Shown: positions 12,449 through 61,870, counted from the first letter of the stretch. The stretch is 64,000 nucleotides of DNA from Candidatus Altimarinus sp. (GCA_020724225.1 DYHI01000003.1:1103-65102); one strand, 5' to 3'. Program-made: numbers and translations. Notes: generated by a model from the letters alone, not told the origin.

Positions 12449-12590
12449 GTCATTCCTGGCTAGACCAGGAATCTATTGTAAGTATAACAATTAAAAATAA
12501 CTTAAGACACATAGAATTAATCAGTTTTTTCTCAAAAGATAAGACTAAAGGGTCCGGTAATTGATAGATTCCTGTTTTCACAGGAATGAC
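12449..12590. mobile_element. MITE-like unit: two inverted copies of the GTCATTCCTG...CAGGAATCTAT hairpin module flanking ~87 nt
   Basis: gtcattcctggctagaccaggaatctat (12449-12476) and atagattcctgttttcacaggaatgac (12564-12590) give 10-nt perfect inverted termini GTCATTCCTG. Intergenic. Confidence 0.7.
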
Positions 12591-12617
12591 ACATATTTCT
12601 AAGGAAAGCAATCCCCC

Positions 12618-14366
12618 ATGAAAAAAACAATTAAAAAAATATTTAAAAATTTCAAAGAAACTATTTGAGCAAAGATGTATTATAGCATCTTTGCTTTTTG
12701 ACTATTTGCATCACTGGTATCACTATCAGAACCATTTGTTTTCGCTAAACTATTAAACTATCTTGAATGAGTTTTGAGATGAAACACTTTTTCATTTAGT
12801 GAATTATCGTTTTTTATATTTTTTTGGGTATGATTAATTATATTTACACTAATTACTTCTTATATTTACAGATACTATTTTGTTGATTTAAGTGTATTAA
12901 ATTTTTACATGCACTTAAGAAAAAAGTATTCAAATATACTTTTAAATATGACATATAACAATTACTTAAATAAAAAGCAATGAGAAATATATAGAAAATA
13001 TGAAAAGTGAACATGAGATCAATTTATGATTTTATTTTTTATACTTCAAGAAATAGTAAAAACTCTATCTTGAATTATCATAATTATAATTCTTCTTTTT
13101 ATACTTAATTGGCAAATGGCACTAGCTACAGTTTCTATGCTACCGATTATGTTATTTATGTGATTTTACTTCAATACAAAGACAATAGAATTACAAAAAG
13201 AAAATAATGACAAAGAAAATGAGTTGATGTGATATCTTTGAGACAATATATCAAATTTAGCATTAGTTAAGATATTGAATCTAGAAAATAATCTAAAAAA
13301 GTTCTTTTATACAAATTATGATAAATTGTTTAACACTCAATACAGCATATCAAAAAGATGGTCGATAGCTGATGTATATATATGAGTACTCGTTATGGCA
13401 GCTAGACTTATTACTCTACTTTTATGAGCTTACATGGTAAGTGAATGAACACTCACTCTTTGATATTTATTTTTATACTTTTCATTTATAGGTTGGGTAT
13501 ATTTCCCACTTTGAGGTATGTTTTGAAGACTTAGAGATTTACAAAAACAGATTGTTTCTATACAAGCATTTTATGATGATTTTGATAACCTAGAACTTGA
13601 GGAAGAAGAAATTTGAAAAGAAAAACTTGAAAAAGTTGCATGAGATATAGAGTTTAAAAATGTATGTTTTTCATATAATAAAGATAGAAAAATATTAAAA
13701 GACATAAATTTAAAAATAAAAAATGGTGAAAAAATTGCATTTGTATGAGATACATGAGCGGGGAAGAGTACAATCGTAAATCTACTTTTTAGATTTTGGG
13801 ATATTGCTGATTGAGAAATACTTATTGATTGAAAAAATATAAAAGACCTAAGTAAAAAATTTATAAGAAATCATATTTGAATTGTTATGCAAGACAACAC
13901 ACTTTTCAATACTTCAATCAAAGAAAACTTAAAAATCGCAAAAGATAAAGCTAAAAAGGAAGATATAATAGATGCTTTGAAAAAAGCAAAAGCAGATTTT
14001 GTGCTAGATTTAAAAGACTGAATTGATACAATCATATGAGAAAGATGACTAAAACTAAGTTGATGAGAAAAACAAAGACTTTCTATAGCTAGACTATTCT
14101 TGAAAGATCCTGAAATACTTATACTCGATGAAGCAACTTCAGCACTAGATAACAAAACAGAAAAAGAAATTCAAAAATCACTGGATAATTTGATGAAATG
14201 AAGAACAACTATAATCATAGCACATAGACTTACAACAATAAAAAAAGTCGATAGAATATATGTTATTGAAAATGGTAAAATAGTTGAAACTTGAACTTAT
14301 GATGAACTTATAAATGCTTGAGGAAAATTTTATAACCTTGCAAATCCTGATAAATTAATTGTTTAA
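12618..14366 (+). CDS. ABC transporter, fused permease/ATP-binding protein (MsbA-like exporter)
   Basis: 6-TM N-domain. Walker A GDTGAGKST, signature LSGGEKQR (GG are TGA TGA), Walker [13 protein letters not shown]. 582 aa. Confidence 0.88.
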
Positions 14367-14375
14367 AAATTTTCT

Positions 14376-15077
14376 ATGCACATTTGAATTATAATGGACT
14401 GAAATCGTAGATGGGCGAAAAAAAGATTACTACCAACTTTAGCATGACACAAAGCCTGATTCGATAATGCTATGGATATAGTAGAAAAAGCAAATGATAA
14501 ATGAATAAAATATTTGACTCTGTGGGCATTAAGTAAAGAAAATCTTGTAAAAAGAGAAAAAGAAGAATTATCTTGAATAATAAAGCTCATAGATAAATTA
14601 AATGATTTAATACCTAGATTTCAAAAAAATAATCTTAATTTTCAAACAATTTGAGATATAGAAAAACTACCTTTAGAATCTCAAAAAATTTTGGAAAAAG
14701 TAAAAAATGAGACTAAGAATAATACATGATTAACACTTATAGTTGCACTTGTTTATTCATGAGAAGACGAAATTATAAGAGCTGTTAAAAAATTTATCAA
14801 CTCTATTCCCCCTTGAGAAAGGGGGCTAGGGGGTTTTAATTCTTTAGAAAACTTAAATGAAGAATGATTTAGACAATACCTTGATACTGCTAATTTTCCA
14901 AAACCTGATTTGATTATAAGAACAGGTTGAGATATAAGACACTCTTGATTTTTACTATATGACTCAGATTATAGTGAGTACTATTTTTCAGAAAAGCTTT
15001 GGCCAGATTTCGATGAAAATGAGCTTGATAAAGCACTAAATTTTTTAAATAAATCTAAAAGAAATTTTGGAAAATAA
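14376..15077 (+). CDS. uppS: Undecaprenyl-diphosphate synthase (cis-prenyltransferase)
   Basis: MHIGIIMDGNRRWAKKR and IRTGGDIRHSGFLLY motifs. 233 aa. Confidence 0.9.
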
Positions 15078-15099
15078 AATTTAATAACAATATATTATT

Positions 15100-16203
15100 A
15101 TGCTTCCTACTTGGTACACAAATTATAAAAAATTTATAGATAATTCAATAAAATTGTTTTTAGATGAATATCTAAATCCTGCTATCATTCCTGCGAAGGC
15201 AGGAATCTATAAAAAAAAGGATTATGACAAATTAATAGATCCCCAGATCAAGTCTGAGGATGACAATATTTATTCAGAATGACAAATAATTTGTTTTTCT
15301 AAACCTCTAAACGATTTCAAAGAAATAATTTATTATGCTACTAATTCATGAAAAAGAGTTAGAGCTATTTTAGCATTGGAGGTTTATCTAAATTTAACAA
15401 ATCAAAAACTTGAAGATATAAAACAAGATAATGATATAGTAAAAGTATGTGTTGCTTTAGAATTTATACATGCATACTCACTACTTCATGATGATTTACC
15501 ATGTATGGACAATGATGAATATAGAAGAGGACAATTAACAGTTTGGAAAAAGTATGGTGAAACAAATGCTGTTTTATGTGGAGATTTATTAAATACACTT
15601 TCTTTTGAAATACTTTCTACAATTAAAGATAATGAAAAATCAAAAAAAATTATTAATTTAATTTCTAGAGCTACTTCGATTTATGGAATGATTTGATGAC
15701 AAATTGAAGATATTTATTTTGAGCATAATATAAATGAATTAGATTTATCATTGATTGAAAGCCTACACAATAAAAAAACATGAAAACTTATTGAAGCTTC
15801 AGTTTTAGCTTGAATGATACTTGCAAAAGATTATGGCATTCCTGCATCGGTGTGAATCTATAAAAAGGATTATGACAATTTAATAGATCCCCGTATCAAG
15901 TACGAGGATGACAAAATAGGGATAAGTCAGGAATGACAAATGTATCTAAATCTATCTAGTTTCTGACAAAATATATGACTAGCTTTTCAAGTAAAAGATG
16001 ATATACTTGATGTAGAATGAACTTTTGAAGAAACAGGGAAGAGTGTATGATGAGAGAAAAAATGATTTGTTCACTTTATATGACTTGAAAAATCAAAAGA
16101 TTATTTAGAAAAACTATCAATTGAAGCATTAAAAAATATATCAGATCTAAAATCAGAAAAACTAGATTTTTTAGTTGAATATATAAAAAACAGAAATTCA
16201 TAA
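15100..16203 (+). CDS. Polyprenyl (farnesyl/geranylgeranyl) diphosphate synthase carrying two in-frame repeat-element insertions
   Basis: Asp-rich motifs LLHDDLPCMDNDEYRRG and FQVKDDILD. 367 aa, ~70 aa longer than the core fold because of the inserts at 15185-15285 and 15836-15939. Confidence 0.85.
15185..15285 (+). repeat. Palindromic modular element, full copy, in frame in the polyprenyl synthase
   Basis: atcattcctgcgaaggcaggaatctat ... atagatccccagatcaagtctgaggatgac ... cagaatgacaa. Encodes [34 protein letters not shown]. Confidence 0.9.
15836..15939 (+). repeat. Palindromic modular element, second in-frame copy in the same gene
   Basis: gcattcctgcatcggtgtgaatctat ... atagatccccgtatcaagtacgaggatgac ... 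gtcaggaatgacaa. Encodes GIPASVGIYKKDYDNLIDPRIKYEDDKIGISQEGQ. Confidence 0.9.
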
Positions 16204-16223
16204 AATATGAATTTCTGTTTTTT
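16190..16223. terminator. Hairpin terminator between convergent genes
   Basis: acagaaattcata-aaa-tatgaatttctgt followed by a T run. It lies between the polyprenyl synthase stop (16203) and the OLD nuclease stop (16227). Confidence 0.8.
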
Positions 16224-16226
16224 ATA

Positions 16227-61191: not shown

Positions 61192-61201
61192 TTTTAAATT
61201 A

Positions 61202-61249
61202 ATAAAAAACTATTTTCAAACAAAAATTGAAAATAGTTTTTTTATTTTT
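61202..61249 (+). terminator. Terminator hairpin, copy 1 of a 48-nt direct repeat
   Basis: taaaaaactattttcaaacaaaaattgaaaatagtttttttatttttt. Confidence 0.8.
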
Positions 61250-61319
61250 TAGTATACAAAAAATTTGATTTTTACACAAATAGTATACAATTAAAATAAT
61301 ATAAATTAATTTTAAAAAT

Positions 61320-61490
61320 ATGCTATCAAAAGATGCAATGGAAGATTTAAAAAAAGATTATACTTTTGAAGAAATTCAAAAAATAAGTATTAGTTTGAGA
61401 AAAGTTAGAGAATGAAAAGTTTTATCAAAAAAACAAGTCAAAAATTTTATTGATAACGATCTATTTTCTAAATATTCAATTAATGTTTAA
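61320..61490 (+). CDS. Putative antitoxin (56 aa)
   Basis: MLSKDAMEDLKKDYTFEEIQKISISLRKVREGKVLSKKQVKNF... The stop overlaps the toxin ATG (aATGtttaa). Confidence 0.55.
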
Positions 61491-61761
61491 TGTTTTTTAT
61501 TCTGAAGATTCACTTATAGATTTAAAAGAAATTGCTGATTTTATATCACAAGATAACCCATTTTATGCAAACAAAGTAATTGATATTATTTATGACAGCA
61601 TTGAAAAATTAGAAATCTTTCCATTATTATGAAAAGAGAGAAAAGAAAATTTGAGAGAAATAATTGACCCTAAATACTGATTTAGAATAATTTATGAGTT
61701 AAATACAGAAAGTAAAATAATTAACATAATCTCAATTTTTAAATATAAAAATAACTGGTAA
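61483..61761 (+). CDS. RelE/ParE-family type II toxin
   Basis: MFNVFYSEDSLIDLKEIADFISQDNPFYANKVIDIIYDSIEKLEIFPLLGKER...YGFRIIYELN...INIISIFKY pattern. 92 aa. Confidence 0.7.
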
Positions 61762-61770
61762 AAATTTTCT

Positions 61771-61818
61771 TAAAAAACTATTTTCAACTAAAAATTGAAA
61801 ATAGTTTTTTTATTTTTA
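61771..61818 (+). terminator. Terminator hairpin, copy 2 of the 48-nt direct repeat
   Basis: taaaaaactattttcaactaaaaattgaaaatagtttttttattttta. Differs from copy 1 at 2-3 positions. Confidence 0.8.
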
Positions 61819-61843
61819 TAATCATTAAGAATTAACATTATTT

Positions 61844-61870
61844 ATAGATTCCTGCCTTCGCAGGAATGAC
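61844..61870 (-). repeat. Single hairpin module just upstream of elp3
   Basis: atagattcctgccttcgcaggaatgac. Its ATG (61866) is in frame with elp3. Confidence 0.85.

Follow-up and report, generated by a model that had tools for sequence, protein, structure and literature searches.

Palindromic repeats within and between genes of a TGA-recoding Gracilibacteria genome: CGTC-tagged REP hairpins and a likely link to Ssn-type nucleases

A 64,000-nt stretch of DNA from Candidatus Altimarinus sp. (GCA_020724225.1, DYHI01000003.1:1103-65102), analyzed over its whole length and called the window below, carries a family of short palindromic repeats that lie both between genes and, in frame, inside them. 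These repeats are very probably CGTC-tagged repetitive extragenic palindromic (REP) hairpins, also described as NTS or SRM hairpins, and their paired forms are best read as miniatures that lack the ssn gene and are spread by an Ssn-type nuclease. On this reading the window adds a host lineage to a selfish-DNA family that was already known; the element itself is not of a new kind.

Hairpin modules and their arrangement

A first-pass annotation of this DNA had recognized two modules, A and B, as hairpins, and both fold far better than shuffled sequences. As single-stranded DNA (ssDNA), module A reaches -7.7 kcal/mol (z = -6.0 against shuffles), while composites of the two modules reach -15.6 and -24.9 kcal/mol (z of about -5.4). 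Module A was defined as GTCATTCCTGCG-N3-GCAGGAATCTAT (right arm also given as GCAGGAATC) and reads GTCATTCCTGCGRAKGCAGGAATCTAT in the window; it can be laid out as TGTC-ATTCCTGC-GAAG-GCAGGAAT-CTAT, with an 8-bp stem and a 4-nt loop of the form GNNG/T. Module B, when read on the opposite strand, is TGTC-ATCCTCGTG-CTTGA-CACGGGGAT-CTAT, with a 9-bp stem that includes one mismatch and a 5-nt loop. B thus shares its tag and tail with A, and in the composite the two related hairpins are paired in inverted orientation, tags outward, across a conserved 21-nt spacer, which makes it a REP heterodimer. Among the hairpins whose flanks were read, the tag is TGTC in eleven and CGTC in two (E7 and E10), with the variants TATC in the A hairpin of E2 and TGTA in that of E6. 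Some elements carry additional pieces at the distal end: the GTCAGGAATGACAA pieces are the right arms of A-type hairpins, and the distal GAATGACAA modules are half-hairpin remnants.

This anatomy is that of the CGTC REPs, which Di Nocera, De Gregorio and Rocco (2013; PMC3733652) characterized by a CGTC or TGTC tag, a stem of 8-9 bp starting with AT, a loop of 4-5 nt and a short tail. Most of the CGTC REPs in their survey occur as dimers, and heterodimers are frequent. The tag, the stem length and its AT start, the loop, the short tail and the interspersed inverted dimers are all found in the window, with the tail reading CTAT as compared to the CCA consensus of the surveyed repeats.

All told, there are 17 hairpins at 10 loci in the 64 kb, where none would be expected by chance. 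Module A alone yields 8 matches at up to 3 mismatches, against 0 expected; the A-type total is 11, two degenerate copies included, and module B is present in 6 copies with the degenerate ones counted. The degenerate copies were added by repeat finding, a hairpin scan and nhmmer profiles. Where at least 12 composite copies had been claimed, we count only six A+B composites among the ten loci (E2, E3, E4, E5, E6 and E8), together with one A-A' dimer (E1) and three solo A hairpins (E7, E9 and E10). Inverted dimers therefore make up seven of the ten loci, which are as follows.

12449..12590, (-): E1, A-A' dimer with tags outward, intergenic, between a SecF-like gene and an ABC transporter gene; A' at 12449-12476 (+), 87-nt spacer, A at 12564-12590 (-); dimer fold z = -3.4
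15184..15285, (+): E2, composite, in frame in the N-terminal part of a polyprenyl synthase gene, encoding a 34-residue stretch; A at 15184-15210, spacer, inverted B at 15235-15264, distal half-module TTCAGAATGACAA
15835..15939, (+): E3, the other in-frame insert of the polyprenyl synthase gene, in the loop that precedes the second DDxxD helix; degenerate A, spacer, inverted B at 15883-15912, distal GTCAGGAATGACAA
20915..20992, (-): E4, 78-nt insert in frame in an RlmD-like methyltransferase gene, encoding 26 residues; A at 20966-20992, spacer, degenerate inverted B at 20915-20944
22838..22930, (+): E5, intergenic composite just 5' of the start of a NAGPA-domain gene, antisense to both neighboring genes; degenerate A at 22838-22864, inverted B-type variant at 22900-22930
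23231..23308, (-): E6, 78-nt insert in frame in a metallo-beta-lactamase (MBL)-fold gene, encoding VIPADAGIYKNDSNNLIDPRVKHEDD; A at 23282-23308, spacer, inverted B at 23231-23260, this B being an exact match to the published SRM search pattern
24583..24609, (+): E7, solo A with a perfect stem, intergenic, 24 nt upstream of the MBL gene ATG, antisense and out of frame
38445..38585, (-): E8, 141-nt insert in frame in ligA, in the loop that immediately precedes the KxDG adenylation motif; A at 38559-38585, spacer, inverted B split by a nested small hairpin (38488-38540), two distal GAATGACAA half-modules
41783..41809, (-): E9, solo A of 27 nt (9 codons, VIPAEAGIY), in frame in an acyl-AMP ligase gene
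61844..61870, (-): E10, solo A, perfect in its stem and antisense, located at the 5' edge of a radical-SAM open reading frame (ORF)

Four of the ten loci are intergenic though only 7.5% of the window is, an over-representation of about 5-fold, and three of the four (E5, E7 and E10) are upstream antisense hairpins. The first-pass annotation had described the intergenic copies as more degenerate, which is true of two of these loci; the other two are perfect A hairpins. It had also placed a seventh intragenic copy at the start codon of the MBL gene. That copy, 24583-24609, is in fact intergenic, with a TAA before the ORF and the supposed IPASAGM peptide in a different frame. At E10 the hairpin contains an internal ATG in frame with the radical-SAM ORF, and another ATG, 13 codons downstream, is just as plausible a start. 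E1 and E5 have 11-12 nt in common past the hairpin tag (TTAnAAATATGT/GTCATTCCTGTGAA; 12591-12602 and 22826-22837), located about 25-30 nt upstream of a start reading ATGAAAAAAAC, and they may represent a subfamily that carries a piece of a 5' untranslated region or promoter.

Insertions inside host genes

The window has a GC content of 24%. Its ORFs of at least 100 aa total 11.7 kb when TGA is taken as a stop and 84 kb when it is taken as sense, and TGA stands at invariant glycines of conserved motifs, such as KFD-X-LG (the KxDG motif of LigA) and X-TDHA-X-I (GTDHAGI in ValRS). The window therefore uses genetic code 25, in which TGA encodes glycine. A gene list made with this code contains 58 genes that cover 92.5% of the window, with TGA accounting for 1034 of their 1287 Gly codons (80%), and the closest relatives of the LigA protein are labelled Candidatus Gracilibacteria. 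The repeats differ from their surroundings in composition, having a GC content of 37-48%, and unlike the TGA-preferring host genes they encode Gly as GGA or GGG.

Translation with TGA as Gly bears out the earlier observation that six copies lie in sense and in a single frame within five ORFs, encoding a peptide of V-I-P-A and a further 23 residues. Pfam matches identify the hosts as polyprenyl synthase (two inserts, with the domain split in two), an RlmD-type methyltransferase, an MBL-fold protein, LigA (with its adenylation domain split) and an AMP-binding ligase, and in each protein the insert lies between conserved blocks.

The comparisons with orthologs and structures that the first-pass annotation had proposed point to inserts in loops, which are lacking from related proteins. 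Many Gracilibacteria LigA orthologs (64-74% identical) have only a short loop between DFDERV and EFKFDG, where the window protein is about 50 residues longer; the insert is absent from P0002, P0005, P0008-10 and P0012. Aligned with the LigA structure of E. faecalis (4lh6), 65 residues of the query face 3. An AlphaFold model of LigA built with 42 sequences gives residues 126-180 a predicted local distance difference test score (pLDDT) below 50 and no secondary structure, so that this segment is predicted to be disordered. The modelled protein (P0001) was the version with TGA read as Trp, in which the 36 residues wrongly given as Trp may depress pLDDT outside the insert. At E3 in the polyprenyl synthase (IspA), query residues 241-279 correspond to residues 210-216 of PDB 3q1o, with about 5 residues replaced before the second DDxxD helix, and the RlmD-like protein has about 28 extra residues between conserved blocks at E4 as compared to PDB 5xj1. 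The 27-nt hairpin E9 is absent from the syntenic acyl-AMP ligase orthologs in relatives L200, L201 and L203, and alignment to luciferase shows a 12-residue gap at its position. In the window (41297-43972, (-)) the acyltransferase and AMP-ligase ORFs adjoin, with one stop codon between them; the two genes are apart in L200 and L201, and in L202 and L203 the AMP-binding domain is part of one 911-aa protein, which we take to be a fusion with the acyltransferase.

In related Gracilibacteria the LigA loop harbors composites drawn from three different hairpin families. In L200 (10350-10500) it contains an A hairpin plus an ATTCCGGA hairpin, in L201 (10385-10532) an ATTCTCGGG hairpin plus an ATTCCGGA hairpin, and in L203 (about 10370-10500) an ATTGCGA-type pair. 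All of these composites are in sense and in the same 5' frame, starting with GTC-ATT (V-I), and most end in (E/Q)-G-Q by way of TGA. Further LigA orthologs have other element-like remnants in the loop. This site may be a hot spot, reflecting either repeated insertion or replacement of one ancestral insert. A degenerate GTTATTCCTGC remnant is also seen in L200, just upstream of the LigA-loop composite.

Could the VIPAxAGIYKK...DPRVKHEDD stretch be an ancestral or convergent protein segment, and not inserted DNA at all? The peptide does occur in six places, always in frame, and a similar peptide is present in the LigA of two other Gracilibacteria. Nevertheless, this explanation is highly improbable. 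The hairpin DNA is near-identical, even at synonymous positions, across unrelated genes and non-coding spacers and in both orientations; the stretch is missing from many orthologs and from all solved structures; the insert peptides match no NCBIfam or Pfam model at E<=10 and, as modelled in LigA, are predicted to be disordered; and their glycines are written GGA in genes that otherwise favor TGA. Assembly or chimera artifacts of the metagenome-assembled genome (MAG) can be set aside with still greater assurance. Assemblers can be misled by short repeats, but each intragenic copy keeps a long ORF open with the correct host gene on both sides, a second assembly record (L199) carries the same ligA element, with 0 mismatches over 6.2 kb, and related elements occupy the same loop in independent MAGs.

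The frame and orientation tabulation called for by the first-pass annotation, made over the window and 18 further loci (209 kb in all, recoded), gave 41 hairpins, comprising 26 intergenic copies, 8 in the observed sense frame (F1), 7 partner hairpins in R1 and 0 in any other frame. In the composites, TAA and TAG are lacking only from F1 and, in most of them, from one antisense frame, which requires TGA to be read as Gly. The F1 peptides are the more hydrophilic, with grand average of hydropathy values of -0.83 to -0.90 against -0.76 to +0.22 for the open antisense frame. Moreover, the intergenic copies E5 and E7 lie on the strand opposite to that of the intragenic copies in the same region. 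Given the hydrophilic sense peptides and these opposite-strand copies, selection on the peptide explains the bias more simply than strand-specific insertion does, small as the frame-bias numbers are. Replication-strand bias was also considered as the sole cause of the orientation bias and is rejected in view of E5 and E7. In standard-code genomes about 88% of the A hairpins are outside long ORFs, and the remainder favor no particular frame, though a part of those ORFs may be spurious.

The distal GAATGACAA modules were said to read E-G-Q through TGA, and they do so in three elements, with in-frame TGA codons in the tail modules of E2, E3 and E8. The stronger statement that the element is open only under code 25 applies to these copies, which are three of the five intragenic composites, and not to E4 and E6, which the standard code also leaves open, as it does the solo hairpin E9. 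Nor is the family specific to code 25. In-frame copies occur in standard-code contigs, in membrane and surface proteins of L164, L172 and L176 and in a putative MurB (identified by eye) of the Daviesbacteria genome L092, as well as in recoded contigs, in Fmt (L159) and an M3 peptidase (L166). Code 25 broadens the range of tolerated inserts and is not a precondition.

Breadth of the hairpin and the Ssn nuclease

The hairpin is very widely distributed. The exact A hairpin is found at 31 viral-contig loci in IMG/VR, with GC contents of 34-68%, and, together with a CTA tail, at more than 120 genome loci across most bacterial phyla. Flavobacteriia, Ignavibacteria, Planctomycetota, Chloroflexota, Rickettsia, Tisiphia and many candidate phyla radiation (CPR) groups appear among the matches listed, as are two Gracilibacteria loci, and an inverted partner hairpin follows in most cases of the genome scan. 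A metagenome scan with a longer pattern yielded 47 loci, about 13 of them recoded.

The enzyme that may explain this spread is known from Neisseria. Chenal et al. (2025; PMC11893778) showed that dRS3 is part of a 28-nt hairpin, NTS, with the consensus CGTCATTCCCGCGMAVGCGGGAATCYRG, and that SsnA, a 94-aa single-domain GIY-YIG nuclease, binds and cuts NTS only as ssDNA, a few nucleotides upstream of the hairpin. The C after the palindrome is critical for binding, while the three nucleotides before it (GTC) govern cleavage. The ssnA gene is typically located between NTS copies, an arrangement they called "identical to insertion sequences", and SRM motifs and Ssn homologs are widely scattered among bacteria, Rickettsia, Wolbachia and Neisseria having more than 300 copies.

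Similar units accompany the hairpin of the window elsewhere. In L106, L141 and L069, a GIY-YIG gene of 95-96 aa starts a few bases past the hairpin and runs to just short of an inverted copy. L167, which reads TGA as Gly and has a GC content of 28%, contains CGTCATTCCTGCGAAGGCAGGAATCTATTAA, a 94-aa GIY-YIG gene and ATAGATTCCTGCCTTCGCAGGAATGAC, followed by a GTAGGAATGACAG half-module, and the recoded contig L166 has a hairpin-ssn-hairpin unit built with another hairpin type. One more such unit, at 1778-2152 of L204 (24.0% GC, with TGA at conserved glycines of pyruvate kinase), has a frameshifted gene; the frameshift falls in an A-run near the 3' end of ssn and could reflect either a decaying copy or a sequencing error. 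In the recoded contigs of 24-28% GC, the ssn-flanking hairpin shares the CTAT tail of the window, and the recoded units have the layout of the composites, with the gene standing where those have the spacer. The Ssn-like protein of L167, used as a query, returned 2,203 homologs. The best 120 of the 2,203 all belong to Pfam PF01541, most of them about 95 aa long and about 60-65% identical across phyla, and none of these 120 is labelled Gracilibacteria. Compared by sequence with the PDB, Ssn had no match.

A mechanism can be proposed from these arrangements. The dimers would be miniature versions of the hairpin-ssn-hairpin unit that lack the gene, and an Ssn-type nuclease would spread them in trans. 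With 92.5% of the genome coding, insertions would often hit genes, and the survivors would be only those inserts that keep the frame and supply a hydrophilic, loop-compatible F1 peptide. The GAA-TGA-CAA tail modules would be tolerated because TGA is a sense codon.

Several observations weigh against this reading. Searches of the 64-kb window with a three-protein Ssn hidden Markov model against the six-frame translation, and with Pfam, did not find ssn, and no transposase was detected among the 46 gene products scanned with Pfam out of the 58 called. The role demonstrated for Ssn in Neisseria is the restriction of transforming ssDNA and not the movement of hairpins. Module A fails the published SRM search pattern because of a T:A pair in its stem. 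The sense and frame bias comes from about a dozen insertions, some of them perhaps of common ancestry. Finally, as regards the terminal inverted repeats and target-site duplication that mark an IS-derived miniature inverted-repeat element, the dimers have inverted hairpin ends, yet their flanks show no visible duplication, and neither a duplication nor a precise empty-site junction could be defined, since the relatives are only about 75-80% identical in DNA.

Short GC-rich hairpins, inverted dimers, conserved spacers and a high copy number are also what would be seen in classical REPs and REPINs moved by a REP-associated tyrosine transposase (RAYT) of the IS200/IS605 type. In spite of the similar look, this alternative is very unlikely. 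The tag here is (C/T)GTC and not GTAG, Di Nocera et al. (PMC3733652) found no RAYT with CGTC repeats, the same Pfam scan of 46 of the 58 window products revealed neither a Y1 nor any other transposase, and the gene between inverted hairpins elsewhere is GIY-YIG.

Unlikely, but a more serious contender, is a domesticated Ssn/NTS system of ancient spread, not mobile at present, in which the hairpins mark the cell's own DNA for Ssn cleavage of incoming single strands, so controlling transformation as Neisseria does, or function as mRNA hairpins. SsnA and NTS limit transformation in N. meningitidis (PMC11893778). In line with DNA uptake, two T2SSE ATPases of the PilT/PilB type are encoded in the window, as is a protein whose N-terminus is pilin-like. 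The conservation of the hairpins far exceeds that of the host genes, module A being identical in the ligA of L200 though the LigA proteins are only 69% identical, and solo hairpins are located just 5' of three gene starts. Against domestication stand the presence/absence differences among syntenic relatives, the occupation of the LigA loop by different hairpin families, the nested and truncated modules and the frameshifted ssn of L204. These differences, nesting, truncation and frameshift look like mobile-element turnover, and the mobile and domesticated views are not exclusive.

A more elaborate version of the mobile reading is, in our view, rather improbable. Here, a resident Ssn of Gracilibacteria with TGA as Gly would move the dimers by a strand- or transcription-coupled mechanism, which, and not selection alone, would set the sense and frame of the insertions. 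The LigA loop would be a homing hot spot of family replacement, and reassignment of TGA would open an extra GGAATGAC-arm frame, through which essential proteins would acquire new surface loops from these elements unusually fast.

Other features of the window deserve brief mention. A 595-aa OLD-family nuclease (16227-18014, (-)), with an AAA_15/AAA_21 ATPase and an OLD-like TOPRIM domain, is a defence-type gene amid housekeeping genes. A ParE toxin gene (61483-61761) has a small ORF upstream (61320-61490), and the pair is flanked by two 47-nt terminator-like hairpins that are 96% identical (61203-61249 and 61771-61817), giving it the look of a small cassette. A 559-aa ORF (51718-53397, (-)) with 6-7 diverged tandem repeats of about 105 nt and a signal-peptide-like start suggests a repeat-domain surface protein. 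A 56-nt AT-rich repeat (...AATAATTATTAATTATTCACTATTAACTATTCA) occurs just 5' of three gene starts (11349-11404, 18954-19009 and 60176-60231) and may be a common promoter or leader. Neither a tRNA nor an Rfam match at gathering thresholds turned up in searches of the whole 64-kb window, which includes about 900 bp (39012-39921) with no convincing gene.

Comparison with known systems

The first-pass annotation likened the repeats to the in-frame Rickettsia palindromic elements (RPEs), a comparison that proved apt. The CGTC REP survey (PMC3733652) equates CGTC-1 with both dRS3 of Neisseria and RPE-6 of R. conorii, and CGTC-4 with RPE-4, and we find the exact A hairpin in Rickettsia and Tisiphia. 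As summarized in PMC10969869, the RPE-1 repeats of Ogata et al. (2000) are palindromic, about 150 bp long, and inserted in frame in unrelated housekeeping genes at fold-compatible sites, where they encode a conserved hydrophilic peptide. The elements of the window are alike in their in-frame insertion into unrelated genes at sites the protein tolerates and in coding for a conserved hydrophilic peptide, and differ in being 27-141 nt long and built of CGTC hairpins, RPE-1 belonging to another sequence family. The insert peptides match no NCBIfam or Pfam model and are therefore not RPE-1-like. Since all the structural features of CGTC REPs are present, the resemblance to RPEs probably reflects membership of the same superfamily and not convergence.

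With REP/REPIN-RAYT systems the repeats have in common hairpin singlets and inverted doublets, a small gene between inverted hairpins as the presumed source, and vertical persistence. Those systems differ in their GTAG tag, in their HUH tyrosine transposase and in the location of REPINs, which is almost always extragenic.

Module A departs from dRS3/NTS by one compensatory stem pair (C:G to T:A) and by the tail; the GTC and the C are kept, and two B hairpins match the published SRM search pattern exactly. The Ssn paper (PMC11893778) does not treat in-frame copies within genes, gene-less dimers as derivatives, or CPR.

Among the CGTC REPs surveyed in PMC3733652, intragenic copies encode 20-30 aa, and many are in replication and repair genes, DNA ligase included; the family was described as having "no dedicated transposase". 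The survey did not cover the phylum of the present host, a Gracilibacteria with 24% GC and TGA as Gly. Unlike the surveyed repeats, the dimer of the window pairs a CGTC-1-type with a CGTC-3/4-type hairpin across a 21-nt spacer, and six of the ten loci are intragenic in one frame, some of them read through TGA.

These comparisons extend a pan-bacterial hairpin repeat, known as dRS3/NTS, RPE-4/-6 and CGTC REPs, to recoded, ultra-small Gracilibacteria, and in-gene palindrome insertion of the kind made famous by Rickettsia is seen to occur in CPR too. In this genome, nearly devoid of intergenic space, the repeats become extra loops in essential genes. Two literatures are also joined, that of the CGTC REPs without a dedicated enzyme (2013) and that of Ssn beside the same hairpins (2025), and the gene-less dimers with the exact hairpin-ssn-hairpin layout suggest a testable route to CGTC REP multiplication. 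For annotation, peptides such as VIPAKAGI and (E/Q)GQ in CPR proteins are repeat-derived; they make proteins longer and can lead homology searches astray.

The repeats had been put forward as a possibly undescribed family of code-25 CPR bacteria. The family itself is known, as CGTC REPs and NTS/SRM, though we found no description of these elements in the literature on palindromic repeats, miniature inverted-repeat transposable elements or REPs of Gracilibacteria and CPR. The kind of element, its insertion in genes and its cognate nuclease are all already published; the novelty lies in the host lineage, in how large a share of the loci is intragenic, in the use of one frame, in TGA being read through, and in the match in layout between the gene-less dimers and the ssn units.

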